From positions 412,933 to 476,932 of the forward strand of contig JBAZYF010000001.1 in the NCBI GenBank assembly GCA_041659505.1: DNA of 64,000 nt, in the 5' to 3' direction. The translations under genes and the position numbers were made by a program. The first letter of the stretch is position 1; each line of letters starts with the position of its first letter. A model generated the notes under the pieces. The model was not told the origin of the DNA. It worked only from the letters and a program-made list of their open reading frames with translations, and did no database searches. Below, piece after piece: positions 9,472 through 45,194 of the stretch. This DNA is from Parcubacteria group bacterium (GTDB lineage: Bacteria > Patescibacteriota > Minisyncoccia > Moranbacterales > UBA2206).

Positions 9472-9491
9472 TTCTAGTATTAATTCAAATA

Positions 9492-11972: not shown

Positions 11973-13118
11973 TTAAAGGGTAATTCGGTAGAGTTTTCCA
12001 TCTGTGCGGTTCACAAAAAACAAGATGCTTTCATCTGCATTGAGAAATAGTTTGGTGGCATCATATTCGCCATTGATTTTTTCTAGGTCGATGATTCTGT
12101 TTTTTTCTCCCGTTACCGTGTCGATTTTCCAAAAAGTATCGGCTGTATGGAATTTTTCTTGATCGTAATCATTCGGCATTATGATGTTGGCAGGGATTTT
12201 TCCTGGCATGGCGCAATAGGCCATCTTATTGTCTTTAAGCCAGGCGCACTTAGATGTGAGAGTAGGAAAATTCAAATTTCTAAATTCTCCCCCATTGGAG
12301 TTAATGATAGCGAGTTGGATTTTTGTTCCAGCTTTGGCATCAGAGTGGCTGACGAGTGCAGCTGTCCCATCTTCATTCCAAAGGTAGTCTGCTCCAAAAA
12401 AGCCATTCAGAAGGCTTTTCTTTTCTCCTCCGATCACAGGAACAGAGCTGAGGTTAGTCTCAAAAAGAGCGTCTGGCTTATTCCAGAAAGAAACTAGGCT
12501 ACTTTTGGGAATTTGAGCGATAGAAATATTGGGAAAATCTAGATCAGCTAATTTTATCCAATTGGTTCCATCAGGATCCGAAATGTCCAGAGCTGATTTT
12601 TTAGTAGCAGGATCATAATAACGGTAGAAAATGCGATTTCCGGTGTTTTGCCAAGTAACTTGATCAATATTATCTCCTAGCGGTAAATTTCTTTGTTTTG
12701 TGTAATCGTAATAGTATAATTTAATTTTTCCGGTAGAGATAAATTTTGTAATTACCTTGGTTTTATCTGGCGACCAATAAACATCACTTAGTCCGATCAG
12801 TTCTTTGTTGGAAAGAATCTTTTTATTATTGCCGTTAAAATCTATTTGATAAACTTCGCCGTTATTTTTAGCGTAATAGTCAATAGCGCTTAGGCTATTA
12901 TTTAGGATTGGAGAAATTACTGCTTCATCGGATATAACGGTGATTGGGTCGGCGCTGACTTTTGGAGGAACAACGACGGGTGGTACGTCAGGGGCTTTTT
13001 TTTCCACTGAAGTGGTGTTGATTGGATTTCGGAATGCTAGGTTATAGATGCCAAAAAACAAAAGTGCGACACAAAAAAAGGCCAGGGATGTAAAAAAAAT
13101 TTTCTTGTTGATCGACAT
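11973..13118 (-). CDS. Secreted/anchored protein with a predicted beta-propeller-like domain (TolB/WD40-like)
   Basis: N-terminal TM helix, then repeated ...YWSPDK..., ...DGT... blades. First gene at the low-coordinate end of the minus-strand cluster. Confidence 0.4.
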   Translation of the reverse strand: MSINKKIFFTSLAFFCVALLFFGIYNLAFRNPINTTSVEKKAPDVPPVVVPPKVSADPITVISDEAVISPILNNSLSAIDYYAKNNGEVYQIDFNGNNKKILSNKELIGLSDVYWSPDKTKVITKFISTGKIKLYYYDYTKQRNLPLGDNIDQVTWQNTGNRIFYRYYDPATKKSALDISDPDGTNWIKLADLDFPNISIAQIPKSSLVSFWNKPDALFETNLSSVPVIGGEKKSLLNGFFGADYLWNEDGTAALVSHSDAKAGTKIQLAIINSNGGEFRNLNFPTLTSKCAWLKDNKMAYCAMPGKIPANIIMPNDYDQEKFHTADTFWKIDTVTGEKNRIIDLEKINGEYDATKLFLNADESILFFVNRTDGKLYRITL

Positions 13119-13177
13119 GGGATAAAAAAGTTATTTTTTCATGCAGCTACCTGCTTGTTATGGCAGACAGGCGTGAT

Positions 13178-13636
13178 TTATTTGGTGGTTGCAGTGCTGG
13201 TGGTTGAACAAGTGAAGGAGTGCCAATTTTTATCTTGCTCCAGTCCAAGGTTATAACCCCCTGTTCCGCTTTTGGCAGAAAATATCCAAAGCGTGACGTT
13301 GACGATTAGCCAGGCACCAAGAGTTAAGGCAAAACCGATAACAGCGCTTGTGATAAAGCTTTTTCCTTGCGTAGTAAGCTTCGGATCCCCCGATGACACA
13401 ATAAGTATCACTCCAGCTATGCAAATAGCAGTGATTGCGAGAGTGATAATAATCGTCATGCCCCAGTCCATTAGATTTTTAATCCCAATGATCAGGTGGC
13501 AAAGCGTACAGGGGTCATTTGCGCCAGTACCGCAAGGGACAATTCCAGCTGCTGAAGCGAAATGAGTTGCGCCAAAAAACAAAGCAAGGAAGGAAGATAA
13601 ATAAGCTAATTTCTTGAAGGTATCTTTTTTCATCAC
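13178..13636 (-). CDS. VirB2/TrbC-like T4SS pilin candidate
   Basis: 152 aa with a signal peptide and two hydrophobic helices (LMDWGMTIIITLAITAICIAGVILIVSSG and SFITSAVIGFALTLGAWLIVNVTLWIF), the architecture of TrbC/VirB2 pilins. Confidence 0.5.
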   Translation of the reverse strand: MMKKDTFKKLAYLSSFLALFFGATHFASAAGIVPCGTGANDPCTLCHLIIGIKNLMDWGMTIIITLAITAICIAGVILIVSSGDPKLTTQGKSFITSAVIGFALTLGAWLIVNVTLWIFSAKSGTGGYNLGLEQDKNWHSFTCSTTSTATTK

Positions 13637-13645
13637 ATTTTTAAA

Positions 13646-14176
13646 TTAATTAGGAAATTCTGTTTCGCCAGGGCAGAAGCTTAATCCATAATTTCCTCCG
13701 CTGGCAGTTTCATTGACAGTTGGCGGAACGGTAAGGGATACATTTAGTTGACAAGCTTGATCTTTGGTGATGCCTAGTATATCAAGAAAATCACTCTCTG
13801 CAATTTCTCGCGCTTTTTGGATGTTTGGATCCATCATGGCAATAATAAATCCCTGTTGTTTTGGATAGTAGGCCATGTAATAATATTGGGTATTTTTGAA
13901 ATTTACTCCATCAAGATCTAGCGGTTTGGCATCAGGCAATTTGTAGATATTATTGACCGCAACTGTTCCGGTCTGGGTTGCTATTGTAAAAGTATCAATT
14001 GCTGTTGCTGGTTTTTCTCCGTGGATTATAGGCAATTCTTTTTTAGCAGTGTTTTGGTTTGTTTCTGGCTGATTATTGTCCGTTTTTTTGTTTTTTTGCG
14101 AAAGCCAGAATAGCAGGATTGATGTAATGGATAACAGGAGGATGATGCCAAAAAAAATTTTTCTTCTTGTGCTCAT
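13646..14176 (-). CDS. Hypothetical secreted protein (N-terminal TM or signal anchor)
   Basis: 176-aa ORF with a hydrophobic N-terminus inside the T4SS-like cluster. No recognisable domain. Confidence 0.45.
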   Translation of the reverse strand: MSTRRKIFFGIILLLSITSILLFWLSQKNKKTDNNQPETNQNTAKKELPIIHGEKPATAIDTFTIATQTGTVAVNNIYKLPDAKPLDLDGVNFKNTQYYYMAYYPKQQGFIIAMMDPNIQKAREIAESDFLDILGITKDQACQLNVSLTVPPTVNETASGGNYGLSFCPGETEFPN

Positions 14177-14204
14177 AGAAATAGGTTGAGTTTTAGCTTA
14201 AAAT

Positions 14205-15125
14205 TTAAAATCCACATGTCTTATTGCTATTCTCCCAGGTATTATATTTATTTCCACTATGTTCTTTATAGAGCTGACAGGCAGCGGTTATATTTCCGCT
14301 TCCACTACAATTGCTGTCGACGCAAGACTGGTAGCTCGTTCCGGCTCCGGTGCATTTAAAACTCGCGCAACCCTTGATCGGATCTCCTCCAGTGAAGGCA
14401 TTCTTGCCTTTGCATGTACAGGTCATATTGACTTGCAGCGCTCCACAAGAGAAAGACGTTCCATCAGTGCATTTATCCACTTTGCTCATAGTAGGCTTTC
14501 CGGCGCTATCAACATCGACACCTCCACTTTCCTTATTGCAAAGTGATGAAATTTTAGAAAGATCAGCCATTCCGTCAAAGCAACTTCCTGTTAACGAATC
14601 AACCGAGCAAGGACCGCTCGTTACGGGTTCGCATTTTCCAGTTCCAGCGCTTCCGCCTGTTCCCGTACCTGTCCCTGTCCCTGTTCCTGAGGTTGTATTG
14701 CTGCCAGACTGGCTCAATGGCACTATATTAACTAGATTTGGATTGATGGTATATAGGAGAACGTAAGAAGTGAGAGCAAGTATAACACCAGCAATAGCAT
14801 CAAAGATGATTTCCTTGGCCTTTCCTACTCTGCTAGTGTTTCCAGCGCTAGTGATGTACATGAAAGCGCCGATGGAAATCATGAAAACTGCTGAAATGCC
14901 GACCATCCAAAGTCCAAATTTATAAATTGCTAAAATATAGCCTTCGTAGGAGGTGATATTGCTAAATCCAGGAATTTCTTCCATCGGGGTGTAGGAAAAG
15001 CTTGATGCGTCAGCTAAGACAAGACTAGGCAAGAAAAACATGAAAAGGGCTGATGCCCAAAAAAAACTTTTTGGTTTTGTTTTAAAATTCATCAATTTTT
15101 GTTTTAGGCAATATGAAAAAAACAA
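14205..15125 (-). CDS. VirB2/TrbC-like pilin N-terminal module fused to a Cys-rich C-terminal domain
   Basis: Signal peptide plus two TM helices (YKFGLWMVGISAVFMISIGAFMYITS and IIFDAIAGVILALTSYVLLYTIN). Then a (GT)6 linker encoded by a 6-nt DNA repeat, then a ~120-aa domain with about 20 Cys. Confidence 0.5.
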   Translation of the reverse strand: MFFSYCLKQKLMNFKTKPKSFFWASALFMFFLPSLVLADASSFSYTPMEEIPGFSNITSYEGYILAIYKFGLWMVGISAVFMISIGAFMYITSAGNTSRVGKAKEIIFDAIAGVILALTSYVLLYTINPNLVNIVPLSQSGSNTTSGTGTGTGTGTGGSAGTGKCEPVTSGPCSVDSLTGSCFDGMADLSKISSLCNKESGGVDVDSAGKPTMSKVDKCTDGTSFSCGALQVNMTCTCKGKNAFTGGDPIKGCASFKCTGAGTSYQSCVDSNCSGSGNITAACQLYKEHSGNKYNTWENSNKTCGF

Positions 15126-17943
15126 TTTTTAGCGCTAAAATAATTGCTATGCCGGAAAGAGCGACGCGGAAAAGAAAAGCGATATAAGTTGGAATACCAG
15201 AGGAGACTGTAGCAAAAATTTTCTTGGGGGATGTGCCGTTTTTTGCTAATGGGCCAGCGCTGGTTACAGCAATTTCAATGTTATGCGTCAAGGTTCTCTC
15301 ATAAAACCCATTATAACTGATATTCCAATACTTGTTAAGCGCTTCCCTGGTAGCGTTAGTCGGTGTGTATGTGGTAGAAAAAGAGACAAGATAGGTCTTT
15401 CCGGTTTCTTTCTGCGGTAAGGTTAATTTACCATAGTTTGTCGTATCGATGGAGTAGCCATAGCTTGCAGCATTATCGGCGTTAATATCTACTCCATCAA
15501 TATTCCATACATAGGGGCAACTTGATGGTACCCCCACTGAGTCGTTGAAGTCTTTTATTCCATCTGTTCCAGAAAATACAGGAGTAAGAACGATGTTATT
15601 ATTAGTTAACGCCTGGAATACTGTTTCGCTACGGTCTTCATAAGCAACATTATTAAAATCATAGTAATTTCCCAGTAGCAGTCCCTTGCATGTCTGATTG
15701 CCGGAAGCGTCGTGATTATCAGTGTCAAGTGGCACAATCTTAACATCTGGCGTAACAACCTTAAAGACTCTTGTCAGGCTAAATTTCTCGCCAGTTTCAA
15801 TATTAAGCATCGACAGTTCTATGTTATATTGACTGCCGGCACTTCCAAGGACAGGAAAGTAGGTTCTTTCTGTCGCTTTATCGTCCTTAATACATCCATA
15901 AAAGTTTTCATCTGGACAGATTTGAGTTTTTCCATTGATTGTCCAAAGAAAGTCGCTATATTTAGTGCCTGTGTTATCAACAGCTAAGGTGATTATTTCA
16001 TCTGGCGCTACTGCGCAGACTGACTGGGGCATGGGATCAGCATCTTCATTAGTAGGATCAATGAAGAGGCATCTTTCTTGAGCGACGGGTATTGGCGCGG
16101 CTGGATCGCTCCCATCAGCATTTGGAATGATCAATAGTTTATTATTGTTTGTGGTGACTCTTGCTGTATAGACCCTTATTCTTTCTTGTGATGAAAAAAT
16201 GGGAAGGATTACATTGGCGTGTCCTTCTCTGCTTCCGGCGTCTCCTTCTAAGGAATCATTGACAACTGCAACAACCTTGAGATATTTAGGAATAATATTA
16301 TTGGTGAAGGCATTTCCTGAAAAATCAGAATCCTTGAAGTTCAAATTGAACTTAAAGGTATTTATTCCCAGACCGGAAGTTGATGTAGAGCCGTCCAGGA
16401 TGTCCTTGGAGAGAGGGGACCCCCAATCATCAGGGTTGGGTTCATCGCTACCATAAACTGTCCAGGTATAATTAAGGTAGGTGTCATTTGTCGCATTTGT
16501 AGCTGTTGCGGTAAATGAAAGTTCATCGCCATTTCCCTTGGGATCCCCCTCGACATAAGTGCTAGGGAGAGGATTGGAATCATTATTGGGATTTTGTGGT
16601 AGATATTCTAGACTAACATCCAGTTTTTCCGTTGCGCCTCCACCTTCAGACGGGGTAATGAGATTTTGATAAAGACAATCATTCATATCGCCTGAATCCA
16701 TGTCCGTCATAGTGATCGAAACATTTTCCTCATCTAGTCCTGAGCAATTTGCTACTCCATTTTCGATGTCGCTTCGAGAGCAGGTATTAGTTGTAGTGGT
16801 TTCGTCAGATATGGGATTGGTTGCGAGCAGGCCGGGGTCGGTGCCAACATAGGTCACTACAGTATGGGTTGTGGTTGTTGTCCTTATCGTAGCTGTGTCA
16901 GCAATTTGAGTGCCATCTAAGATATCTTTTGTTGTTGTGGTTGTAATTGTTGTTGTGTAATCAGTAGTTGGCGTATTTAGTCTTGTTTCTGTATCTGGTC
17001 CTGTTGTTTTTGGGTATCCAGTATCCTCTCCGAGATTTGTCGGCTCACACTTATTTTCAGTAAAAGCCCACATTGTTTTATATGATGAGTCAGCGTCTTG
17101 AGTTGATTGGATCGCAACACCTTCTACAACAACACCCACCTTATCTCCGGTTGTGTATGGAAAGGAGAATGTATTTTCACCAAGTCCGGTGACATTGGCT
17201 TCGTCCGGGTTTCCAGTTGTGGCAGTGTCATTATTATTTGGGTCAGTACGCCAAAATTTTTCCTCGCTTTTATTGAATTGACCATCCCCAGTTGTATCAC
17301 TGGGCGCATTGGGAAAAAAATGATGGCAATCCACTTCGTAGTCATCGCCGGAAGAAACATCACGGACATAACATGAGGCGGGTTTTTCTCTTTGGTCATC
17401 GCCACCAAAAACTGATTCGTATCCGTCATCGTCAGCATCCTTAGAATAATCGGCATTTTGCCAATCAAAATCATTATCCACGATGATTCGCATCGCCTTA
17501 ATCTTGTAATCTTCAATATCGACTTCTCCATCATCATCTAGGTCACAATCCTTATTGTAACTATAATCTTCATCAGGAGTCTTCTTGTCGGTACATTTTG
17601 CACCCTTAAGATACCAGGTAAAATAGAGATTGTCGATTGAATTCGTGAAATATGTTGGCATGGCCGTGGCAGTGACCGTTTCTCCTGGTACGGGATCTGC
17701 AGGGTCAAAAGTAACAGAAACCATCGGAGGATTGATTTTCCTTCTGCTGACATTCATTGTTTGGATACCATTTTTCAATTCATTCTTATCAATACCCAGT
17801 TCGCCAAAAACTGAATCCATGAGTGACATTGGGTTGCCAAGCGAAACACCAAGTAAATCTGCGTAAACCGGCAAGGCTGTCAGTGAAAAGACATTGACAA
17901 CGATCAAAAGAGTGATTATCGTTTTTTTTAGATCAAGTTTCAT
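15082..17943 (-). CDS. Large surface protein (953 aa) with N-terminal signal and C-terminal transmembrane anchor
   Basis: N-terminus MKLDLKKTIITLLIVVNVFSLTALPVYA; T/N/D-rich low-complexity body. The C-terminal helix IAFLFRVALSGIAIILALKIVFFILPK is followed by basic residues. Confidence 0.55.
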   Translation of the reverse strand: MKLDLKKTIITLLIVVNVFSLTALPVYADLLGVSLGNPMSLMDSVFGELGIDKNELKNGIQTMNVSRRKINPPMVSVTFDPADPVPGETVTATAMPTYFTNSIDNLYFTWYLKGAKCTDKKTPDEDYSYNKDCDLDDDGEVDIEDYKIKAMRIIVDNDFDWQNADYSKDADDDGYESVFGGDDQREKPASCYVRDVSSGDDYEVDCHHFFPNAPSDTTGDGQFNKSEEKFWRTDPNNNDTATTGNPDEANVTGLGENTFSFPYTTGDKVGVVVEGVAIQSTQDADSSYKTMWAFTENKCEPTNLGEDTGYPKTTGPDTETRLNTPTTDYTTTITTTTTKDILDGTQIADTATIRTTTTTHTVVTYVGTDPGLLATNPISDETTTTNTCSRSDIENGVANCSGLDEENVSITMTDMDSGDMNDCLYQNLITPSEGGGATEKLDVSLEYLPQNPNNDSNPLPSTYVEGDPKGNGDELSFTATATNATNDTYLNYTWTVYGSDEPNPDDWGSPLSKDILDGSTSTSGLGINTFKFNLNFKDSDFSGNAFTNNIIPKYLKVVAVVNDSLEGDAGSREGHANVILPIFSSQERIRVYTARVTTNNNKLLIIPNADGSDPAAPIPVAQERCLFIDPTNEDADPMPQSVCAVAPDEIITLAVDNTGTKYSDFLWTINGKTQICPDENFYGCIKDDKATERTYFPVLGSAGSQYNIELSMLNIETGEKFSLTRVFKVVTPDVKIVPLDTDNHDASGNQTCKGLLLGNYYDFNNVAYEDRSETVFQALTNNNIVLTPVFSGTDGIKDFNDSVGVPSSCPYVWNIDGVDINADNAASYGYSIDTTNYGKLTLPQKETGKTYLVSFSTTYTPTNATREALNKYWNISYNGFYERTLTHNIEIAVTSAGPLAKNGTSPKKIFATVSSGIPTYIAFLFRVALSGIAIILALKIVFFILPKTKIDEF

Positions 17944-18611
17944 TTGGTTAGGTAGATGATAAATGTATCTAGAATTATTATAACAAAAAAACTCATAAAA
18001 TACGAATAAAAAAAAGATTTTGTTTTATAGGTCAAAAAACCTCCCGTGATTGAAAGGATAATGAGGGGTAAATTTTGCCATGAAATGTTTTTGGTGATGA
18101 TAAGTGTTGCAAAGAAAATAGCTGCTTGAATGGCTATCGACCAGTGAGCTATTTTTTTGTCAAAAAGCAAAAGGATAAATCCTTGGAAAAAAAAGCTGAA
18201 AATAAAAATACTGAGGTTGACAAGTACTAGTTCATAAGCGGAAAAAAGCCAGAAGTTATTTTTCAGAGAATCATTTAATATATAGCCTGTCTTGAATTGG
18301 GTAAACATTGTCAATAAATAGAAAAGCACGAGAATGCATAGACATATGCCTATTCCCCAGCGGAGAGCTAAATTTTGATTTTTAAGATTCCATCCAAAAT
18401 ATGCAAGATCTTCTCTGAGAATTATTTTTATATAAGCGATTGGGAGTAGAAGAAGAAAAAAAAGACTTTTTGTGATTGCTTGGGCGGAATTTTGTGCGGG
18501 AAAAATAAAGACGGAAAAAAGGCAAAATAAGGCAAAAACAAGGCTGATGAACAACTCCTGATCGGTAGAAAAAAATTCTCTTTTGATTTTAGTCATTATT
18601 TTTCTGTGCAT
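17940..18611 (-). CDS. Polytopic membrane protein, unknown function
   Basis: 223 aa with about 6 hydrophobic helices. Translationally coupled, overlapping the upstream gene by 4 nt. Confidence 0.45.
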   Translation of the reverse strand: MHRKIMTKIKREFFSTDQELFISLVFALFCLFSVFIFPAQNSAQAITKSLFFLLLLPIAYIKIILREDLAYFGWNLKNQNLALRWGIGICLCILVLFYLLTMFTQFKTGYILNDSLKNNFWLFSAYELVLVNLSIFIFSFFFQGFILLLFDKKIAHWSIAIQAAIFFATLIITKNISWQNLPLIILSITGGFLTYKTKSFFYSYFMSFFVIIILDTFIIYLTK

Positions 18612-18676
18612 TCTGATTTATATTGAATTTTTATGCCTAGGACGATTTTTCTTGAAAGATATCAGAAAATAGATAT

Positions 18677-19204
18677 TTAGGCGTTATAGTTAGATATTTC
18701 CTCATCTTTTTCTGCTTGTGTGGATTTTTTTTCAGCACTAGCATCTTTTCTCTCTTGTAAAAGGAATACATAAATCAAAACAGTGGAGAGTGTTTCCATC
18801 GGCAAAAAGTTTAATCCAGGAAGAAACTCGATCAAATTTCCCAAAAGCAGTGTTGTGGCCTTTTTTTTCCCGAAATAGTGCGATTCTCCGCAGACCAGCA
18901 TTGCTGCGACTGTCAGTATGAATGTGAGGGGGGTCAGTATTGTTCCGATGATTCCCAGGTCAAAAATATCCTTAAGTAGCGCCATCGTAATGGCAGTTAT
19001 GAAAAAAATATCTCTAGTTTCTATGAATCCGATCAAAGAGGCTGCTGAAGCGATGTTTTTTGATAGCTTTTTGATGCTAGCTTTCGGCTTTCCTTCCCCT
19101 TTTTTCGTTTGCTTTTTTTCTTCTTCCGGCGGAGTTTCTTTTTTTTCTTGGCTGCTCTCTCTTTCCGCTTCCAGTCGCCTCTGGTTATCTTCTTCTTGAG
19201 ACAT
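18677..19204 (-). CDS. Small membrane protein with a charged K/E-rich N-terminus
   Basis: 175 aa. Acidic/basic N-terminus, then 3 hydrophobic helices. Confidence 0.45.
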   Translation of the reverse strand: MSQEEDNQRRLEAERESSQEKKETPPEEEKKQTKKGEGKPKASIKKLSKNIASAASLIGFIETRDIFFITAITMALLKDIFDLGIIGTILTPLTFILTVAAMLVCGESHYFGKKKATTLLLGNLIEFLPGLNFLPMETLSTVLIYVFLLQERKDASAEKKSTQAEKDEEISNYNA

Positions 19205-19230
19205 ACTTGGTTATTAATTTAAAATTCTAC

Positions 19231-21072
19231 TTATGCTTCTTCGCTCAGTTCTTTTTTGGCCCTTTCAATGTCCAACAGCTGAGATGGGTCGGTTGTGATA
19301 ATCTGATCTTCAGAGTAGGAGGCGACAACCTTGATTGCAACATGGTTTGTTCCGGCAAAAAAAATACCCTCTCCAACATTGCTTTCTAGGAGTAAAAATT
19401 TTTCTTGGTCGGTGAGATAAAAAGTATCAGTGATGACGTCAATGCCAGCAGGGGATTGTTTTAAGAGCAGTTGTAAGGAGGAATTGGTCACAATTGCTTT
19501 GCCATATCGGGAAGAAAGAAAGTCATTGACATCCTGAGTGATTGTTGTGAGGCCCGTGTAATATTTGCGGCAACGCTTGGCGATACCAAAGAGAAAGGAG
19601 GCCGCATCTTCATATTTCATCATAACCCAGGCCTCATCAACCAGCACTAACCTTTTTTTCATATTTGTGCGCATCTCGTTCCAAATGAATTGCAGAATGA
19701 TATACATAGCTACCGGGCGCAATTCTTCCTCCATGTCGCGAATATTGAATACGACCAACTGATTGTCCACCTTGATGTTGGTTGTGTTATTGAGAAAACC
19801 GGCAAAAATTCCCTGGGTATACTTTTCCAGACGAACAGCTAAAACCTCTCCACCGTCCAGGCTACGCAGTATTTGGTAAAGATCAGACATTGTAGGAAAG
19901 GAGTCTTTGTTGAGTGCATTTAAGTTTGTCTCACCAGTGATATCTTTGATGCTGTAGGTTTCGTGGATAGCCCGATCTAAAACAGAGTCTTCCTCTGGCG
20001 TTATTGATCCAAGCATGATATGTAACAGTCCTAGCAGGTTGGCAATATTATTGCGCAAAATATCTTCTGGATCTTCATCATCGCCTACCTTTGGCAAGTC
20101 AAAAGGGTTGAGATGATTGGGAGAGTTGAGTGATATTTTGATAAAAGTTCCTTCAACAGTATCACAAAGATGTTTGTATTCATTTTCTGGGTCGATAATG
20201 ATAACATCTGTCCCTACCATCATTGAGCGCAAAACCTCTAATTTGACGGTGTAGCTTTTTCCAGCACCAGACTTGGCAAAGACGACCATATTAGCATTTT
20301 CCATTTGAAAGCGGTCAAAAATAATCAGGCTGTTGTTGTGTCGGTTGATGCCATAAAGGATTCCGGTGTTTGAGGATAGTGTGGATGAAACAAATGGGAA
20401 AGTGGTAGAAAGCGGAGAGCTGTTCATATTTGTCCCGATATCCAGTTCATCATTTGCTAATGGCAAAGAGGAATTAAATCCCTGTTCTGATTTGAATACG
20501 GCAGGTTTTATATAGACTAGTTGAGCTTCTAGGATTGCCTCAATACTTTTAATGTTCTTTGTAACTGCATCTTCATTGTCTCCATAAGCTGTTATGTAGA
20601 GGGCGAAACGGAAAAACTTTTCAGTCCCCTGCTGGAGCTTATCACGCAATTCATCGATGTCTTGTTGGGCGGTTTCCAACGCTGGATCGCGGATCAATCC
20701 CTTATTTTGTTCAATCTGGATTTCAGATTCGACTTGTGTCGCACTTTTTTTTAAAGTTTTTAGGATATCATAGGTGTCGACGGGATGGATGAACATGGAA
20801 ATGTCAATCGGCATATCAATATTGATGATTGGAGAAAACCAATTGCTGTGCAGATAGCGTGGATAAGCGATAACAAAAATGGTCTGTGCGATTGTTTCTC
20901 CTACGCGGATAGATTTGGGCATGATCTGGATTGCGGCAGGCGCAATTATATCATTGAGCTTAGCTAGCCCCTCTTGGTAATACTTTTCTGATTCCAATAT
21001 CTCATCTTGTGGTTTGGTTGGTTGGTTTGATGAAATATCAGTCGAATTTTTTTTGGCGAATGGGTTAAACAT
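19231..21072 (-). CDS. VirB4/TraC/TrbE-family T4SS ATPase, ATPase domain
   Basis: Walker A VVFAKSGAGKSYT and Walker B RLVLVDEAWVMM. The central block ...IAYPRYLHSNWFSPIINIDMPIDISMFIHPVD...IRDPALETAQQDIDELRDKLQQGTEKFFRFALYITAYG matches the VirB4 signature region. Confidence 0.85.
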   Translation of the reverse strand: MFNPFAKKNSTDISSNQPTKPQDEILESEKYYQEGLAKLNDIIAPAAIQIMPKSIRVGETIAQTIFVIAYPRYLHSNWFSPIINIDMPIDISMFIHPVDTYDILKTLKKSATQVESEIQIEQNKGLIRDPALETAQQDIDELRDKLQQGTEKFFRFALYITAYGDNEDAVTKNIKSIEAILEAQLVYIKPAVFKSEQGFNSSLPLANDELDIGTNMNSSPLSTTFPFVSSTLSSNTGILYGINRHNNSLIIFDRFQMENANMVVFAKSGAGKSYTVKLEVLRSMMVGTDVIIIDPENEYKHLCDTVEGTFIKISLNSPNHLNPFDLPKVGDDEDPEDILRNNIANLLGLLHIMLGSITPEEDSVLDRAIHETYSIKDITGETNLNALNKDSFPTMSDLYQILRSLDGGEVLAVRLEKYTQGIFAGFLNNTTNIKVDNQLVVFNIRDMEEELRPVAMYIILQFIWNEMRTNMKKRLVLVDEAWVMMKYEDAASFLFGIAKRCRKYYTGLTTITQDVNDFLSSRYGKAIVTNSSLQLLLKQSPAGIDVITDTFYLTDQEKFLLLESNVGEGIFFAGTNHVAIKVVASYSEDQIITTDPSQLLDIERAKKELSEEA

Positions 21073-21145
21073 TGATGTTTGTGGTTTTATTTATATTCCC
21101 TTTATCTCTCGAGAGAGGTCCATTTGATGGCGAGGAAAATTTGGG

Positions 21146-21832
21146 CTATCTTAATTCCATTTTTTCCGTATCGATATAGCCCTTAGTATCATAAATAGTT
21201 GGATTATAAGCATTAAACAGTAGTTCGATCAATTCTTGTGTCTTGAGTGGAGCGATGCGGACTCCGATACCAGAGAGTCCGGCAGTAAGGTGGTCGACCC
21301 TTTGATATAGTTGGCTCTTGTATGTCTCAAATGTTTCTCTTTTCTCTATGATTTTTCTTTTGGGATTAAGCATGTTGGAAAAATTACTAAAAAAACCTCT
21401 CTCCTGGTTCTCAATAGGGGAAAATGGTACGACAATATAAAACATTTTATCCATAATATCAGACATGGAAACTAATTGGGTGATGAAATTTTTATATTCT
21501 GATATTTGCATCCGCATCAATTCGGTCTTTTGTTGCTTCTCCTTGGTGGTTAAAAAATCGAGATAGGTGTCTATATTTAGCTTTCGCGAATTAATCAGAA
21601 TTTGCAGCGGAAAATCCACTGAGTTGAGAAAGTTTTGGTACTGATTGATGATTGCTTCTTGCTCATCCGTTGCTTTAAGTTCAAAATTGATTGCAGAAAC
21701 AGCCAAAACTGCCCTAATTGATCCGCTCTTAAGGACTATTACGTCTTCCTTTACTTCTGCTACGTCTAGATATTTTTGCGTAGGTGATTTGGAAGCTTGC
21801 TTGGTAAGTTTTTGAGAATAAAGTTTTTCCAT
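21146..21832 (-). CDS. VirB4 N-terminal domain (CagE_TrbE_VirB-like) encoded as a separate ORF
   Basis: ...YLDVAEVKEDVIVLKSGSIRAVLAVSAINFELKATDEQEAIINQYQNFLNSVDFPLQILINSRKLNIDTYL... is the typical PrgJ/TcpF/VirB4 N-domain. A 73-nt gap and a different frame separate it from the ATPase ORF. Confidence 0.7.
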   Translation of the reverse strand: MEKLYSQKLTKQASKSPTQKYLDVAEVKEDVIVLKSGSIRAVLAVSAINFELKATDEQEAIINQYQNFLNSVDFPLQILINSRKLNIDTYLDFLTTKEKQQKTELMRMQISEYKNFITQLVSMSDIMDKMFYIVVPFSPIENQERGFFSNFSNMLNPKRKIIEKRETFETYKSQLYQRVDHLTAGLSGIGVRIAPLKTQELIELLFNAYNPTIYDTKGYIDTEKMELR

Positions 21833-21837
21833 GTTTT

Positions 21838-22263
21838 TTATCTTTTTTTCATATCTAATAATTGGGAAATATCGGCTACTTTTTGAGCGTCAAATTTTTT
21901 CCGGCTAATCACGGGAGTGGCTGCTTGATTTTTTTTAGCCTTTTCCGCCATTTTTTCTGGCAAGCGCCGCCAGATATACATTTTAGGTCGGATGATAAAC
22001 AAGATCGAGGAAAGAACAAATTTAATGAGTGGCTGGTTGTAGGGCCTATAGAAGGCAAAAGAGCCAAAAACGGCTGAAACAATAATAATAGAAAGAATAA
22101 AGGCCGACTGGTCTAATGTTTTATAGGTGAGCAGAAGAACTACTGCGCCAGCAGCAAGCCAGCCAAGTTGTTTGGCGGTGAGCGGGCCAACCAGCTTGTC
22201 TTCAATATCAATAAATTGGGGGACGTTGAATATCATTAAATTGTCTAAACCGTTAATTAACAT
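21838..22263 (-). CDS. VirB3/PrgI-like small membrane protein
   Basis: 141 aa, two TM helices, immediately upstream of virB4. ...LVGPLTAKQLGWLAAGAVVLL... resembles the PrgI/VirB3 family. Confidence 0.45.
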   Translation of the reverse strand: MLINGLDNLMIFNVPQFIDIEDKLVGPLTAKQLGWLAAGAVVLLLTYKTLDQSAFILSIIIVSAVFGSFAFYRPYNQPLIKFVLSSILFIIRPKMYIWRRLPEKMAEKAKKNQAATPVISRKKFDAQKVADISQLLDMKKR

Positions 22264-22336
22264 TGATTTCGCCGAATTTAGAATTTAATCGGTGCAATAA
22301 GTAAAAATAGGTGTTAATCAATGGCTCTAAATTTGC

Positions 22337-23464
22337 TCATTCCTCTTTCAAGTTTACCACATTTTTAGGTAATGGTCTTGGTGGAGTGGAGTAATTTATT
22401 TTAGTGACTTGGCTGGCTTGAGGAAAACTGAGTCGCGGTGGGTGCAAAGTTTCAATCGGTTTTTCTATGGGAAGAGTTTGCGGGGAAGAGAAATGGATAT
22501 TCCCCGTTTCTGGTTCAGTTTTTGCTGTTTCTTTTTTTGGCAGATCTCTTCTCCAGGCGGAAATCCTTTTTTCATCTGGCTGGAGCTTAGGCGCTGGCTG
22601 AGTGATCCTTTGTTTTGGATAATTATTTGTTTGATTTTGTCCTCTTCTGATTTCCGCCGGTTCAGTTGTGCTATTGATGTTTCCAAGATCGATAATTGGT
22701 TTTCGAGGAACTTCTTCTTTCTCTGGTATGTTGAAAATTATTTGCTTGGAATTACTATTTATGGAAAGTGGAGTTTTATCTTCAAAGGATTTTATGAGCG
22801 CTGACAGCCTTTCTCGGTCTTGAAAGGATAACGTTTGGGTGTTGTCACTTTTAAAAAGATAATTTCCCCGGATAATTGGGTCATGATTGCTGATGCCTAT
22901 TGTGAAAGTGTAGTCCGAGAGCCAGTTATCGATAGATGGTCGGACTGGTTCGGGGTAAGTTCTGATTTTAATATAGTTGGCGGTGATTAATTGTTCCCCT
23001 AGTAGGGGGTATTTTTTTAGTGCATTTTCGATCGGTAGGCTTTCTATTTGGGCTGCATAGGCTTTTTCTTGCGAGCTGTCGTTGATTATTCTTTGGATTA
23101 CTAGATCGGAAATCTTTTGCGCCGTAGCGATATTAATGCCTATCTCCTTAGATAAATTGGCGGGAAAGTCAGAGAGTTTGAGTTCTTGAAAATAATAACT
23201 GCGAATCGCACGAGAAATATCAGCCATTTGTAATGGTTCGAGGTGGAAACTTTTGCCAATATTTTGGATTTTTTGAGCTGTTAAGTCAGTAACAAGTTTG
23301 TCCTTTACTGGCTCTGGCAGGATGAGGAATTTTTCTTGTCTCTTTCTGATTTGCTCTGAATTTTCATCATCAGGATTTTTGGTGACAGAAACAGAATAAG
23401 GACGGGTGCATAGCACCAGCTTCGCATCCTCATTTAACTTAGAAAAAGGAAATTCTTTTGACAT
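22337..23464 (-). CDS. Hypothetical cytoplasmic protein with a Pro-rich C-terminus
   Basis: 375-aa ORF in the cluster. No recognisable domain. Confidence 0.45.
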   Translation of the reverse strand: MSKEFPFSKLNEDAKLVLCTRPYSVSVTKNPDDENSEQIRKRQEKFLILPEPVKDKLVTDLTAQKIQNIGKSFHLEPLQMADISRAIRSYYFQELKLSDFPANLSKEIGINIATAQKISDLVIQRIINDSSQEKAYAAQIESLPIENALKKYPLLGEQLITANYIKIRTYPEPVRPSIDNWLSDYTFTIGISNHDPIIRGNYLFKSDNTQTLSFQDRERLSALIKSFEDKTPLSINSNSKQIIFNIPEKEEVPRKPIIDLGNINSTTEPAEIRRGQNQTNNYPKQRITQPAPKLQPDEKRISAWRRDLPKKETAKTEPETGNIHFSSPQTLPIEKPIETLHPPRLSFPQASQVTKINYSTPPRPLPKNVVNLKEE

Positions 23465-23481
23465 GAGATTGGTTTTTTATT

Positions 23482-25428
23482 TTAGACAATTCCGATGCTG
23501 CTTAGCGCTGAAGAGTTGTTTCCAGAGAGTCTTTTGCGAACTTCTGCTTTTGCCTCAGTTTTTAGATTTGCCCATGCGACTTGTGCTGCTAGTATAGCCC
23601 GGTCCCTAGTCGGTCCTGCTGGTTGGCTTATTGTTGCAGTCCAATCTTGATCATTCCACTGTTCAGCGGAAAGCGCACCCATTTGCTGATTTGCAATATG
23701 TTGTTGAATGTCGGCAGTTGCGGCTGCTGCGGTTACAGTTGGTGGCAAGCCTGCCGCACTAATTCTTGCATCTAGATCTGCTCGAGCCGTAACTTGGCTT
23801 GCAGCACTGAAACTGTCAACATTTTCTCGTTTTGCCTGTTCGGTCGCATCATTTGATTTATTGATAGCAACCAGGTCGTTTCTATTTTGCTTTACTTTGG
23901 CGTTTACAGCGCCTCTTAATGCGGCATTGGAATTAGTCCTAATAAAGGCATCATAAGTTGTCTGATCCATTTTTTTATCTTCCGCTAATCTTAGTGCAGC
24001 TCCGGCGTCTCCAGCGGCAGCTAGAGTTTTAAGTTCAGGATCGGTCGTGAGATTTTTCTTGTGTTCGTCAGCCTTTCTTCGCATTTCCTTTTCTAGTGAT
24101 CCCTTGACGGCAAACATGCCCTTGCCAGCATACCTAGCTTCTCTTTCTGCTTGTCTGTCGGATCCAAAATATCCAGTTTTTTTCCAATTGGCCCATTTCT
24201 GTTGTACTCCGCCAGGAATGCCGGTTTTCTTAGCTGCCCACCAGGCAGTCTTATGCGGCGCGCTAGCTAATTGTTTCATTTTCTTTTGACCATATCCAAC
24301 TACTGCTCCTGCGCCTGCGATGCCAGATTTTTGGGCTATGATAATGCCATACCAAAGGATAATGATCGGCAATGCGAAAAAAGAAGCTGCGGAAACCAGT
24401 GTTGTTGTGTCCATCGTTGATCCGCTAGTGTTTGTTTTAGCGAGCGCTTGTATACTAGTTTGGCTTGCGCTGATTGCCGTGAATAGTTTGCTGGCAACAA
24501 ATAGAAAAAAAATTATAATCGGACCAGAAAAACAATATTTCATAAAATCTGTCCACCATTCACTGGCAGAACTGGCCAATTTTGTTCCGGGGGCGATTTG
24601 CCCGACAAAAGCGATTGGAGAAAAGATAATATATATAGTGAGCGCTATTGTCCGTATGAGCAGAAGAACGGCGATTATGAGCAGTGTGATGGCTAGGATA
24701 AAAGTGAAAATAATAGCAGAAATCAAAAAAACAAGGTCAATACTTTGGCTTTTCAGAATATTTTGAATCCCAGTTCCTTCAATGAGGGTCATAAAAGAAT
24801 TGGTTCCGCCAAGCGCGTTCAGGAGACCAAACATAAGCATATTGGAAGCGTCGATAATGAAGCGAGAGATGGGGAAACTGAAATTGACCAAAAGCGCCAT
24901 AATGATCAAGTTGAGTAAGATATTTTTATAGTTAAAATTTGTACTCGCCTGAAAGATGGTAGCGAAAGCGGAGAAGAGCAGTACCATGATAAAGGCGATG
25001 TTAAAAACATCGCGGACAGTGCGCCAAGTATCATAAACCACTTGGTTGCTCATGATCGCCTTCATGTTGTTTGCATCAACGATGTATCCAAAAATAGTTT
25101 GGGCTACGCTGAGTATTACGGCGACAAAGCTTAATATTCCCTTAAGCAGCCATGCTATTCCCCGTTGAAACCAAGTTGCGCTATCTACTTTTGGTATAGG
25201 CATTTTTGACGAATCTATTGATGCACCCTCAGCCCCATAATTATTGGAATACCCTGCAGAAGACTCTCCATTGAGATTGCTTAAGACATTGGAGTACCAA
25301 TGATCTTCAGCTGAAACTGGTCTAGCTGAATAAACAAGTGGTAAAAAAAATGCAACACAAAAAACTGCTAATAAAATTTTCAGTTTGTTTTTTTGAAAAA
25401 AAGTAAGCACGAGTGTATGTTTTTTCAT
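23482..25428 (-). CDS. VirB6/TrbL-like polytopic membrane protein with a long A/K/Q-rich C-terminal tail
   Basis: 648 aa. Signal/anchor, ~60-aa extracytoplasmic segment, a block of 5-7 TM helices, then a ~300-aa hydrophilic tail, as in Gram-positive VirB6 homologs (PrgH/TcpH-like). Confidence 0.5.
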   Translation of the reverse strand: MKKHTLVLTFFQKNKLKILLAVFCVAFFLPLVYSARPVSAEDHWYSNVLSNLNGESSAGYSNNYGAEGASIDSSKMPIPKVDSATWFQRGIAWLLKGILSFVAVILSVAQTIFGYIVDANNMKAIMSNQVVYDTWRTVRDVFNIAFIMVLLFSAFATIFQASTNFNYKNILLNLIIMALLVNFSFPISRFIIDASNMLMFGLLNALGGTNSFMTLIEGTGIQNILKSQSIDLVFLISAIIFTFILAITLLIIAVLLLIRTIALTIYIIFSPIAFVGQIAPGTKLASSASEWWTDFMKYCFSGPIIIFFLFVASKLFTAISASQTSIQALAKTNTSGSTMDTTTLVSAASFFALPIIILWYGIIIAQKSGIAGAGAVVGYGQKKMKQLASAPHKTAWWAAKKTGIPGGVQQKWANWKKTGYFGSDRQAEREARYAGKGMFAVKGSLEKEMRRKADEHKKNLTTDPELKTLAAAGDAGAALRLAEDKKMDQTTYDAFIRTNSNAALRGAVNAKVKQNRNDLVAINKSNDATEQAKRENVDSFSAASQVTARADLDARISAAGLPPTVTAAAATADIQQHIANQQMGALSAEQWNDQDWTATISQPAGPTRDRAILAAQVAWANLKTEAKAEVRKRLSGNNSSALSSIGIV

Positions 25429-25431
25429 TTT

Positions 25432-26466
25432 TTATTTATATAGTGCTCCTGGGCCGTAGGCATCAACAGTTTTATTTATTTCACTGCTCGCCTTATTATT
25501 TACTGTGGTTATTTGCTGGTTAACTTTTTGCTTAACGCCGGAAACAGCTTTGTTTACTGCGCTAGAAATAACTTTAGACACGGCCGCTGCTGCCAATTCT
25601 CCGATACTATTCGCACTTGTAACCGCCAAATTAGGAAGATTGTCCGCGTTAGCTTGCATTTCCTTGTAGAGTATGCCTGGCTTGTCTATGATTCCACTTG
25701 TCGTATCACTGATAAATCCCTGATTTGCGATACTTTGCGCGCTTGCAATAGCTTTTTCACTTTCCAATGCCGCGGCGTATTGCTGAGCAATGGCGGACTC
25801 GGCATCCCAAATCGTATTTCCACCATTACCATCACCTAAAAGGTAGAGGTTTAGATTAGAAAGTGATGAACCCTGAAACATCTGAGCCGGATCTCCCGGA
25901 TAGCTCAATTGCCATTCCTTTATATCAACAATAGTATCTTGAGCCATTGTTTGGATGCTTTGGGCAAAGCTTGCACTGCTACTAGAGGAATCAGATGCTC
26001 CCAAAACAGCTTCTTTGCCGAAACCTTCCTCGGCAATCGTGCTGGCACCTAAAACACTACCAACTGTTTGATAGCTGGAACTGCCTCGTCCGGCGAGTGC
26101 GCGACTAATGTAGTCATTAGCATAGGTTTGCGCGTTACGAGCGGGTGCGGCAATTAAGTAGTCTTGCCAATTAGTTATGAATTTTGGGCCACTGCCTCCT
26201 CCAGAAATAAAACTATCCATTTGCTGGGAAAGCATCTTGACAGCGGCTTGTTTCATGGAACCCATAATCATACCTTTGATGGTGTAGGAAATTTCTTCTT
26301 GTGCTTGCTTGAAAATGGCGCCCGGAATAGCATCGAAAGGGGCAATCCAAGCATAAGTCTTGACCGGACTCAACAAGAGATAGGAAAGAATCATGAAAAA
26401 AAACATGCCCAGATTGATTTTAGTGGGAAGGTGGCCTTCTTTTTGTTTTTTAAAATTATTTTGCAT
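25432..26466 (-). CDS. Hypothetical secreted/anchored protein
   Basis: 344 aa. N-terminal hydrophobic helix, S/A/Q-rich extracytoplasmic body. Could be a VirB8/VirB5-like component, but sequence does not support a call. Confidence 0.45.
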   Translation of the reverse strand: MQNNFKKQKEGHLPTKINLGMFFFMILSYLLLSPVKTYAWIAPFDAIPGAIFKQAQEEISYTIKGMIMGSMKQAAVKMLSQQMDSFISGGGSGPKFITNWQDYLIAAPARNAQTYANDYISRALAGRGSSSYQTVGSVLGASTIAEEGFGKEAVLGASDSSSSSASFAQSIQTMAQDTIVDIKEWQLSYPGDPAQMFQGSSLSNLNLYLLGDGNGGNTIWDAESAIAQQYAAALESEKAIASAQSIANQGFISDTTSGIIDKPGILYKEMQANADNLPNLAVTSANSIGELAAAAVSKVISSAVNKAVSGVKQKVNQQITTVNNKASSEINKTVDAYGPGALYK

Positions 26467-26525
26467 AAAGTGAATAAATATTTTTCCAATAGTGGGAAAA
26501 TATTGACGGGTAGTGCGCGGTTATT

Positions 26526-27635
26526 TTAGGGAGTTGTTGTGCCAGCTGTTGCGTCAGTATTGATATTAAACAGCGATTCTATGCCACTGAGATCTTTCGG
26601 TGCACTGATGCCATAACTTTCCAATTTCTTTTGGACGGTCTCGTCATAAGTCAGGCCATACTGAGAAAATTTACTTTGGGCTTCGGAGGTAAAATCAGAA
26701 AAGACGGTCATAAATCCTTCTATCTTGGAAAGATTGGCGATATTACCCATCGGGTCATTGTCTTTGGCTTGAAAAAGCTCTCCTAGGCTTTCTGAATAAA
26801 TTGCAAAACGCAAAGCTTTAATATGGATGTCGACCAGATCTTCCGGTACTTCGATGGCATTCAATTGCTCAACTATTTTTTTCTCACTAGTGATGAGATC
26901 TTGCAATCCGGAAGAATTCTGATTGGTGATAGCGGTAGTTATAGTGGAAAGGACGCTGGACATGACGCTAGGCGCATCAGTGAGCGAGGTGATTGGCTTA
27001 GGGGAATTACTAGAAAAGATGTATGTGATAGCAACGATATAGTTCAAAAGGTCATCTTTTTTCTTGGCGGTAGCCTCGGCTGTGCTTAAATTACTATAAC
27101 TTTGCGTTTTTATTTTTATATCATCTCTTGTGATGACAGGCAGATCATCCTCGGAAACCGTGCTAGGCGTCATTGTTTCATCGATCAGTGTTTGCAAATC
27201 GTCTAGGGAAATTTGCGTATTAGTGGAAGAAGATTGCTGTGCCAGCGTGCTGGCTTTCTGGGCGATTTCGCTTGTTAAATTATCTTCCGTAGTTTCACCA
27301 AGGACTGAGCTTGTGGAATCGGCAGAAGAAGCCGGATTTGTGGCGGTGACCGCAGTTCCAGCTGTTGATAATTTATCGCCAGGCGCTTTTTTCAAAGGGT
27401 CGTAGCCACTGCGTACTTCTGCTCCGTCAGAATAGCCATCATTATCCGTGTCGGAATTATTCGGATCAGTGGTATAGACTTTTTCTTCTTCATCGGAAAG
27501 TCCATCTTGGTCGCCATCGAGAAAGATACTTTTTGTTTCACTGGAAGTAATTTCGGCGCGTACGTAAAAAGCAAAACTCGAAACGATCAAGCTCGCAAGA
27601 ATGAAAAAAGACAGACTGACATTTTTTATTTTCAT
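26526..27635 (-). CDS. Secreted protein with Asp-rich calcium-binding (thrombospondin type 3-like) repeats
   Basis: Signal peptide MKIKNVSLSFFILASLIVSSFAFYVRA. Repeats DGDQDGLSDEEE..TDPNNSDTDNDGYSDGAE and later DNDGYSDG..DPNNSDTDNDGYSDG. Confidence 0.5.
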   Translation of the reverse strand: MKIKNVSLSFFILASLIVSSFAFYVRAEITSSETKSIFLDGDQDGLSDEEEKVYTTDPNNSDTDNDGYSDGAEVRSGYDPLKKAPGDKLSTAGTAVTATNPASSADSTSSVLGETTEDNLTSEIAQKASTLAQQSSSTNTQISLDDLQTLIDETMTPSTVSEDDLPVITRDDIKIKTQSYSNLSTAEATAKKKDDLLNYIVAITYIFSSNSPKPITSLTDAPSVMSSVLSTITTAITNQNSSGLQDLITSEKKIVEQLNAIEVPEDLVDIHIKALRFAIYSESLGELFQAKDNDPMGNIANLSKIEGFMTVFSDFTSEAQSKFSQYGLTYDETVQKKLESYGISAPKDLSGIESLFNINTDATAGTTTP

Positions 27636-27689
27636 ATGTAAAAATTATACCACAATAATAGTTAGCTTGGGAAGAGCAATTTTGGAAAT

Positions 27690-45153: not shown

Positions 45154-45162
45154 GCTTAAAAA

Positions 45163-45194
45163 GAAAAAATCGCCAATCAGACTGGCGATTTTTT
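45163..45194. terminator. Intrinsic terminator after the recombinase gene
   Basis: AAAAAATCGCCA-atcagac-TGGCGATTTTTTC. Confidence 0.6.

Follow-up and report, generated by a model that had tools for sequence, protein, structure and literature searches.

A probable Patescibacteria-type chromosomal type IV secretion gene cluster, with a pilin fused to a lysozyme-like domain, in a Candidatus Moranbacteria genome

A 64,000-nucleotide stretch of a Parcubacteria group bacterium genome (GenBank assembly GCA_041659505.1, contig JBAZYF010000001.1, positions 412,933 to 476,932; referred to below as the window) was analysed for a gene cluster encoding parts of a type IV secretion system (T4SS). A first-pass annotation, made by a model from the letters, had placed an operon-like, co-directional cluster of fifteen genes on the minus strand at 11973–27635. 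The coordinates were confirmed by the list of open reading frames (ORFs) and by an independent set of gene calls for an identical public contig (L001; Logan SRR6484325). The count was not: both gave the same 14 genes, and since the gaps between ORFs of at least 60 aa range from −11 to +73 nt, none has room for a fifteenth. The layout of the 14-gene cluster is operon-like (Table 1). Genes without a family name are referred to by their left-hand coordinate. For comparison, the best 80 of 557 VirB4 relatives in one-genome-per-species contigs were used; their loci are labelled L001, L002 and so on. Cluster proteins were searched against Pfam, a check that the first-pass annotation had proposed, and against NCBIfam, and its core assignments (VirB4, VirB3/PrgI, VirB6 and VirB2-like pilins) survived the hidden Markov model (HMM) or structure comparisons.

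The VirB4-family ATPase scored 373.9 bits against the NCBIfam model conju_CD1110 (cut-off 325; model positions 180–734 of 752) and matched the Pfam families P-loop_TraG (E = 1.5e-31), AAA_10 and DUF87. As had been annotated, Walker A and Walker B motifs are present, at residues 266–273 (AKSGAGKS) and 475–480. The protein is 91–93% identical to proteins of metagenome-assembled genomes (MAGs) of Candidatus Moraniibacteriota, a taxon that NCBI places within the Parcubacteria group, Patescibacteria group. All of the 80 best relatives (of 557) come from MAGs of candidate phyla radiation type, at 54–93% identity. The best VirB4 from a Firmicutes plasmid (Pontibacillus, L082) is 36.5% identical over 589 aa.

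The approximately 180 N-terminal positions that have no counterpart in the VirB4 protein are supplied by the preceding 228-aa TrsD-like ORF. This product matched three models below their thresholds: Pfam TraC_F_IV (model positions 17–173, E = 0.0059, 16.1 bits; gathering cut-off, GA, 28.1), NCBIfam TrsD (6.1e-7, 29.5 bits; cut-off 200) and VirB4_plasma (positions 92–272, 7e-10, 37.3 bits; cut-off 590). It carries a precomputed TraC-like PF26593 match and is 26% identical (E = 1.6e-24) to the ORF before VirB4 on the Pontibacillus plasmid. A frameshifted virB4, with the 228-aa ORF in the other frame matching the VirB4 N-terminal domain, was considered and rejected: every relative inspected has a separate ORF of this size (about 228 aa), as do Firmicutes plasmids, and it corresponds to the published TrsD component. 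TrsD is the commonest VirB4-associated protein in Patescibacteria (PMC12102498).

The PrgI/VirB3-like product matched PF12666 at 1.3e-9 (38.9 bits, above GA 27) and TcpE at 8e-4. The annotated identity was thus upheld, and the claim that the gene lies directly upstream of virB4 was corrected: the TrsD-like ORF, overlooked in the first-pass annotation, stands between the two. Of the 80 related Patescibacteria loci, nearly all have the resulting PrgI–TrsD–VirB4 triplet. The VirB6-like protein of the window has no Pfam match of its own; a homologue, P0040 (44% identity, E = 1e-81), scores above the threshold of PF04610 (TrbL), and the three best Foldseek matches are likewise TrwI/VirB6 chains. 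Together with the hydropathy profile, these results agree with the annotation of a VirB6/TrbL-like polytopic protein with a long hydrophilic tail. Most VirB6-like homologues also carry precomputed matches to PF19590, an accession for which the current Pfam copy gives no match even in those proteins; it was seemingly removed or merged.

Table 1. Features of the type IV secretion gene cluster; positions are those of the window.
Feature	Position	Strand	Remarks
T4SS cluster	11973–27635	minus	14 co-directional ORFs >=60 aa, tightly packed
TSP3 Ca-binding secreted protein, 369 aa	26526..27635	minus	first gene of cluster
N-terminally anchored extracytoplasmic protein, 344 aa	25432..26466	minus	transmembrane (TM) segment 17–35
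VirB6/TrbL-like polytopic channel protein, 648 aa	23482..25428	minus	hydrophilic tail of ~230 aa
Conserved protein, probably cytoplasmic, 375 aa	22337..23464	minus	folded helical N-terminal region of ~250 aa and Pro-rich tail
PrgI/VirB3-like small membrane protein, 141 aa	21838..22263	minus	PF12666
TrsD-like protein, 228 aa	21146..21832	minus	related to N-terminal domain of long VirB4/TraC
VirB4-family ATPase, 613 aa	19231..21072	minus	NCBIfam conju_CD1110
Small membrane protein, 175 aa	18677..19204	minus	charged N-terminus, ~3 TM (hydropathy)
Six-TM membrane protein, 223 aa	17940..18611	minus	hydropathy
Large surface protein, 953 aa	15082..17943	minus	signal peptide, C-terminal TM anchor
Pilin–lysozyme-like fusion	14205..15125	minus	likely start ATG at 15092, giving 295 aa
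Small N-terminally anchored protein, 176 aa	13646..14176	minus	TM 7–25
Stand-alone VirB2-like T4SS pilin, 152 aa	13178..13636	minus	PF18895
Membrane-anchored beta-propeller protein, 381 aa	11973..13118	minus	last gene of cluster
Putative promoter-like site	27644..27673	minus	consensus scan: TTCCCA, 18-nt spacer, TG, TATAAT; sigma-70-like

Two pilin-like proteins, each with a signal peptide and two TM helices, had been annotated, and both stood up to the searches. The 13178 product matched PF18895 (T4SS_pilin) directly at 27.6 bits, above GA 26.6, and contains a PCG...CTLCH motif; it also shows a weak NCBIfam match to the Mbov_0395 pilin-like family. For the 14205 product the assignment was made through orthologues, 12 of 13 of which match PF18895, its own score being sub-threshold at 16.5 bits. 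In this protein the signal peptide and two-TM pilin domain are followed by a (GT)n linker (nt 14652–14690) and a Cys-rich domain (residues 165–306, with 14 Cys). The linker had been ascribed to a hexanucleotide repeat. A tandem-repeat search found one at nt 14656–14689 with a period of 6; it is imperfect (5.7 copies, 82% matches) and encodes SGTGTGTGTGTGG.

The Cys-rich domain, which the first-pass annotation had correctly described as fused to the pilin and left without an identity, is an SLT_3 lysozyme-like domain by sequence homology. Three features were looked for: a family match, an E-S motif that holds the catalytic Glu and, further downstream, G-L-x-Q-I/V-N. The domain aligns with those of the positional orthologues, of which L006 and L007 pass PF18896 (SLT_3, `Lysozyme like domain') at 36.3 and 30.7 bits against 27. 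The Pfam scan, which reported matches at E <= 0.05, gave none to PF18896 for the window copy. Against an HMM built from six orthologue C-termini it scored 80 bits (E = 6.6e-27), and blastp gave 2e-15 to L007 and 2e-11 to L006. Glu199 in KESGG and the motif GALQVN (228–233) are kept. A homologue search with the domain alone returned one protein; its identity was settled through the orthologues of the related loci. This homology makes the 14205 product a predicted pilin–lytic-transglycosylase-type (VirB1-type) fusion. No separate VirB1 gene was found in the cluster, and the fusion is the obvious candidate for that function. PF18895 and PF18896 have adjacent accession numbers, which suggests that the curators made them as a pair.

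A classical SLT domain (PF01464) takes the place of SLT_3 in the positional orthologues of the fusion from L002 and L017. The second pilin varies too: in relatives, the 13178 orthologue is about 300 aa long (L002:16958-17857, L003:14786-15652, L006:17360-18307, L007:17239-18237 and L012:16169-17092) and ends in a Cys/His-rich CHYGG...D...NHxHxS domain, which is absent from the window pilin and from the L016 copy. That of L012 has a weak match to HH_signal, which we take to have the LAS-peptidase fold, and the domain looks like a LAS/M15-type zinc peptidase. When all ORFs in the 80 related loci were scanned with pilin HMMs, 45 pilin-domain ORFs were obtained, 39 of them with a C-terminal extension of at least 100 aa. 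At least 13 of the 39 extensions are hydrolases recognised by Pfam (SLT_3, five; SLT, four; VanY/Peptidase_M15, three; HH_signal, one). Judged by these domain matches, fusion of pilin to hydrolase is recurrent, with the hydrolase type swapping between related genomes. Such fusions are not mentioned in the main text of the principal survey of these systems (PMC12102498), and no description of them was found in the published literature searched.

The remaining genes encode mostly surface and membrane proteins. The 26526 product was confirmed as a secreted Ca-binding-repeat protein by its match to PF18884 (TSP3_bac, 1.3e-11); an N-terminal hydrophobic segment or signal peptide is followed by a Ser/Thr-rich spacer and a conserved C-terminal domain, for which a family-profile search gave no informative PDB relative. 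Orthologues occur in all full-length Moranbacteria loci. The 25432 product is Ala/Ser/Gly-rich with a single TM segment, has no Pfam, NCBIfam or PDB match, and its gene is kept directly upstream of that for VirB6 in L002–L020. The 953-aa 15082 protein is anchored C-terminally, as annotated, by a TM segment at 927–945; it has an N-terminal signal-like segment and an Asp-rich, Cys-containing ectodomain. Its orthologues in related loci are 785–1135 aa long with many invariant Cys, Trp and Gly residues, and no Pfam, NCBIfam or PDB match was obtained. The 13646 product, also without a Pfam, NCBIfam or PDB match, ends in a conserved domain of about 110 aa terminating in LSFCP. It is accessory, with six orthologues among the related loci and absence from several relatives.

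These four proteins and the 22337 product had been grouped as secreted proteins of unassigned role. An N-terminal signal-like or anchor segment was found in each of the four; the 22337 product has neither a signal peptide nor a TM or hydrophobic segment and is therefore probably cytoplasmic. Its gene sits between those for VirB6 and VirB3. Of 144 homologues none has a Pfam domain, and the family comprises 2010 cluster representatives (E <= 1e-3) in a library of 1.84 billion proteins. The fold is confidently predicted, and the model had no structural match in the PDB. Family profiles of the 26526, 25432, 22337, 18677, 17940 and 13646 products gave no VirB5 or VirB8 match among PDB sequences. 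By this sequence-profile comparison, the 13646 and 25432 products gained no support as VirB8 or VirB5 candidates.

Downstream of virB4, the 18677 gene is kept directly after it in Moranbacteria-type loci L002–L031; the product has no Pfam, NCBIfam or PDB match, and K78, D79, D82 and P135 are invariant in the family. The 17940 product, likewise without a Pfam or PDB match, belongs to a family with invariant E127, F141, F145 and D215 and a nearly invariant G144. A CPBP intramembrane protease with a possible part in pilin processing was considered for it and rejected: the NCBIfam CPBP MrtP match reached only 0.015, and a canonical CPBP protease is argued against by the lack of a conserved His in 23 orthologues. 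The annotated beta-propeller was recovered in the 11973 product when the family profile was compared with the PDB (designed propellers, 2.7e-6; TolB, 0.008), behind an N-terminal TM segment. In other Patescibacteria lineages, at least eight loci (L029, L030, L035, L039, L044, L048, L070 and L080) have a homologue of it directly next to a pilin-fusion gene.

The promoter-like site of Table 1 lies directly upstream of the first cluster gene, in the divergent spacer of about 90 nt toward the UbiA gene. On the left, the cluster is flanked by polysaccharide-synthesis genes, with a GT2 gene and two Wzy_C genes; on the right are UbiA, KsgA (29659–30513), an RpfB-like G5/DPBB protein, ComM, LspA, PNPase and UvrD. 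Further left, dnaN (953–2113) and dnaA (2381–3760) are divergent from a YidC–Jag group (4705–6030), and the GC skew changes sign at about 2 kb, from −0.23 to +0.23. The position of dnaA/dnaN and the skew flip place the cluster 8–24 kb from the likely replication origin. The origin itself probably lies between dnaA (minus) and the rnpA-like/yidC/jag group (4331–6030, plus). If the plus strand to the right of it is the leading strand, the 15.7-kb T4SS operon is head-on to replication, an uncommon orientation for a locus so strongly conserved and presumably well expressed.

In a tblastn matrix, the gene order of the whole 14-gene cluster and its Wzy_C, UbiA and KsgA flanks was kept in L002–L020, about 15 other Moranbacteria MAGs; the first-pass annotation had named this synteny comparison as a check. 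These genomes are diverged, with KsgA 48–65% identical, and the cluster and both flanks are still in order, which argues for a stable chromosomal machine and not a mobile element. In the closest relatives, L002–L007, tblastn identity to the window is 87–93% for VirB4 and 81–89% for TrsD, against 55–65% for KsgA, about 50% for UbiA and 36–71% for the envelope and surface components. Among the least conserved parts, at 36–69%, are the pilins and small membrane protein 18677. Such a distribution fits a motor under strong constraint and exposed parts that evolve fast, and does not fit a recent acquisition.

Several further observations concern the neighbourhood. The two Wzy_C genes stand in tandem and abut the 11973 end of the cluster, and the pair is kept there in relatives, which suggests a link between surface glycan and the T4SS neighbourhood; three Wzy_C (O-antigen ligase/polymerase-like) membrane proteins are encoded in the window, within 9411–11889 and 55445–57163. 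A LysM+CHAP peptidoglycan hydrolase (42871–43968, minus), a XerC/D-type recombinase (44218–45153, plus) and a tRNA-Met gene (45263–45335, minus) adjoin one another. These genes may represent a chromosome-dimer resolvase or mark the border of a small integrated element; they are unrelated to the T4SS cluster. Three TrmB-family regulator paralogues (45353–46150, 58292–59029 and 59949–60641) were found, two of which flank an unannotated 231-aa ORF (59126–59821). Among the related loci, third-party-annotation bins (L012, L013, L015, L017, L019, L020, L022, L025, L039 and others) are titled `uncultured Bdellovibrionales', `Micavibrio' or `Gammaproteobacteria'. The flanks of several of them are also Moranbacteria-like, and the titles look mislabelled; they are not evidence of the system outside Patescibacteria.

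Taken together, the cluster is very probably a Patescibacteria-type chromosomal, origin-proximal T4SS, here in Candidatus Moranbacteria. The system would descend from monoderm conjugation machinery of the MPF-FATA class (MPF, mating-pair formation) with loss of the DNA-processing parts. In a mechanism drawn from established T4SS biology (the R388 and pKM101 structures and the Gram-positive pCF10 and pIP501 systems), a translocon at the single membrane would be powered by VirB4 hexamers docked on VirB3 and VirB6, with the TrsD-like protein supplying or regulating the function of the VirB4 N-terminal domain and VirB6 forming the channel base. Pilin subunits would be pulled out of the membrane by VirB4. 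The pilin-tethered lysozyme-like domain may perform the VirB1 function by making local openings in the peptidoglycan of the cell itself and perhaps also of the host, and the Ca-binding, propeller and 953-aa surface proteins may contact the partner or host cell. A substrate other than conjugative DNA is most likely, given that the cluster encodes neither a relaxase nor a coupling protein. In Southlakia epibionticum the corresponding locus is indispensable for growth on the host, and by this analogy the most likely role here is host interaction, either by exporting protein to the host bacterium or by exchanging molecules with it, in support of an epibiotic life; we consider the chances of this role to be about even.

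Several points weigh against this assignment. A coupling protein or relaxase could sit elsewhere on the contig of about 656 kb, beyond the window, and VirD4-like genes are distant from virB4 in many Patescibacteria (PMC12102498). The relation of VirB4 to the Patescibacteria clade is judged from pairwise identities. No VirB8-like component was identified in the cluster, and the window copies of the fused pilin domain, SLT_3 and VirB6 fall below Pfam thresholds, having been assigned through orthologues or structure. The function was inferred from the genes.

Three other explanations were weighed. The cluster might be an ordinary integrated conjugative element, or the decayed remnant of one, with relaxase, coupling protein and integrase genes beyond its ends. 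Conjugative and plasmid systems of Firmicutes have this VirB4 family (CD1110) and this VirB3–TrsD–VirB4 order, and the tyrosine-recombinase gene beside tRNA-Met (44218–45335) lies in the same window. That gene, the sole integrase-family gene in the window, is 16.6 kb away, however, and the housekeeping genes for KsgA, ComM, LspA, PNPase and UvrD stand between it and the cluster. A check of the flanks for att repeats and integrase genes, suggested in the first-pass annotation, found no att-like direct repeats bracketing the cluster and no integrase adjoining it. Cluster GC content (0.38–0.42) is the same as that of the remainder of the window. Pfam scans of the ORFs over 64 kb gave no relaxase, no VirD4 or other type IV coupling protein (T4CP) and no VirB11, in agreement with what had been annotated, and across about 2,400 Patescibacteria genomes relaxases near virB4 number 15 cases, with T4CP genes seldom near (PMC12102498). 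The conjugative explanation is largely refuted by the synteny of locus and flanks in L002–L020 and is, in our view, extremely improbable; the view of the first-pass annotation, that of a chromosomal machine and not a classic conjugative element, is supported. The cluster might instead import DNA or nucleotides, in the manner of the archaeal Ced system or the Helicobacter ComB T4SS, to feed a nucleotide-auxotrophic bacterium. A T4SS without relaxase and T4CP is compatible with uptake, and a review speculates that T4SS and pilus are a conduit for uptake from the host (PMC12857230). VirB4 does match CedB distantly (3.2e-12), but at 45.9 bits against a cut-off of 700, and no CedA-like match was obtained. 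Competence in S. epibionticum is attributed to type IV pili and ComEC, and loss of comEC is said to abolish transformation with viability kept, whereas the T4SS is essential; for both statements the review is a secondary source (PMC12857230, citing Wang 2023). Among the cluster products, none was recognised as a nuclease or DNA-binding component, and an importer is very unlikely.

The third explanation concerns the pilins: they may form no pilus, the two-helix PF18895 module being a membrane anchor that places peptidoglycan hydrolases beside the channel. Single-TM anchors position the PrgK- and TraG-type hydrolases of Gram-positive T4SSs. The prevalence of long C-terminal extensions (39/45 pilin-domain ORFs), the recognisable hydrolases in at least 13 of these 39 and the lack of a separate VirB1 gene are consistent with an anchor. 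Set against this, the window also encodes a stand-alone 152-aa pilin of canonical architecture above the Pfam GA, an array of short pilins is essential in S. epibionticum (PMC10633639), and fused subunits might enter a pilus in small numbers or lose their extension through cleavage at the flexible (GT)n linker. An anchor without a pilus is therefore a real but somewhat doubtful possibility, and pilin subunits of a Patescibacteria-type T4SS are preferred.

The first-pass annotation overrated the novelty of the locus. Its architecture (relaxase-less, with VirB2-like pilins, near dnaA/ksgA) is already published for Patescibacteria (PMC12102498), as is its essentiality for epibiotic growth in S. 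epibionticum (PMC10633639), which belongs to the sole genetically tractable lineage. The present locus leaves that picture unchanged. It adds a cleanly delimited 14-gene Moranbacteria version, of which the less-described feature is the pilin fused to a lysozyme-like domain. Three leads follow as candidates for structural and genetic work on host engagement by ultra-small epibionts: a putative VirB1-type wall-cutting function on a pilin module, with the hydrolase type varying between related genomes; a membrane-anchored beta-propeller that travels with pilin genes in several Patescibacteria lineages; and the large, probably cytoplasmic 22337 family between VirB6 and VirB3, with its confidently predicted fold without a match. 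A bolder proposal is that pilins with interchangeable hydrolase heads (SLT_3, SLT or LAS/M15-type) are cutters of the host wall assembled or positioned by the T4SS; on this view, the propeller and the 22337 family have so far gone unrecognised as parts of the machine. We regard this as speculative and unlikely. If it were true, the machine would be a drill for epibiotic feeding and not a housekeeping VirB1 equivalent, and the propeller and the 22337-type family (novel fold, about 2000 cluster representatives) would belong to a Patescibacteria-specific T4SS.

The cluster was compared with known secretion systems. With Agrobacterium VirB/VirD4 and R388 Trw (MPF-T) it shares the VirB4 ATPase, the VirB3 role and the VirB2-type pilin architecture. 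It differs from them in having no outer-membrane core (VirB7, VirB9, VirB10), VirB11, VirB5, recognisable VirB8 or VirD4, and in that the VirB4 N-terminal domain is a separate protein; Pfam and NCBIfam gave no match to VirB5, VirB7, VirB8, VirB9, VirB10 or VirB11 in the 14 cluster proteins. The MPF-FATA systems of Firmicutes (the pGO1/pIP501 subclass TrsC–TrsD–TrsE and the CD1110 type) are closer, with the same order of VirB3-like, TrsD-like and VirB4 genes and the same monoderm architecture without VirB7, VirB9 and VirB10. Conjugative prototypes of this class carry a relaxase and a T4CP and have the hydrolase as a separate large protein; the window, in contrast, has a fixed chromosomal operon with extra conserved genes (the 22337 family and the beta-propeller). 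The Pontibacillus locus resembles that of the window in its large polytopic protein and pilin-like genes upstream and in the presence of a peptidoglycan hydrolase. This locus (NZ_CP062975.1, 346556–365149) lies on a Firmicutes megaplasmid typed as non-mobilizable, between chemotaxis and flagellar genes, in the order pilin-like (Mbov_0395 family), hypothetical, 779-aa polytopic, VirB3-sized, TrsD-like, VirB4 (CD1110) and large peptidoglycan endopeptidase. Its gene content indicates that VirB2-like pilin genes are not unique to Patescibacteria among monoderm systems.

The closest likeness is to the Patescibacteria clade itself, to which the first-pass annotation had already pointed through similar loci in Saccharibacteria/Patescibacteria; the link was borne out, the organism being a member of the Moranbacteria (Parcubacteria/Paceibacteria) and not a Saccharibacterium. 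In S. epibionticum, transposon sequencing found the Saccharibacterial locus SEML1_0006-0019, pilins included, to be essential for growth on the host, and this locus also has no recognisable coupling protein and relaxase (Wang et al. 2023, PMC10633639). Such a requirement has been demonstrated in S. epibionticum only, Moranbacteria having no cultured system. The window differs from S. epibionticum in lineage, Moranbacteria in place of the experimentally studied Saccharimonadia; in having two pilin genes where S. epibionticum has an array of six; and in a putative VirB1 function fused to pilin, where S. epibionticum has separate peptidase and lysozyme genes downstream of virB4. It differs from the clade as a whole in its surface proteins (953 aa, TSP3 and 25432), which are detectable within Moranbacteria only. 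A survey of 3,035 Patescibacteria genomes described a monophyletic VirB4 clade nested in MPF-FATA, with TrsD, PrgI/VirB3, VirB6 and VirB2-like pilins near virB4 and almost no relaxases, a repertoire described in 2,407 assemblies, and with dnaA, dnaN, rnpA, ksgA and rpmH enriched beside virB4 in Paceibacteria and Microgenomatia (Quinonero-Coronel et al. 2025, PMC12102498). Each feature of the clade that was compared was found in the window: the same FATA/CD1110-type VirB4 with adjoining TrsD, PrgI/VirB3, VirB6 and PF18895 VirB2-like pilins, the same lack of a nearby relaxase or T4CP (PMC12102498; PMC10633639), and the same origin-proximal setting of dnaA, dnaN, rnpA/yidC and ksgA.

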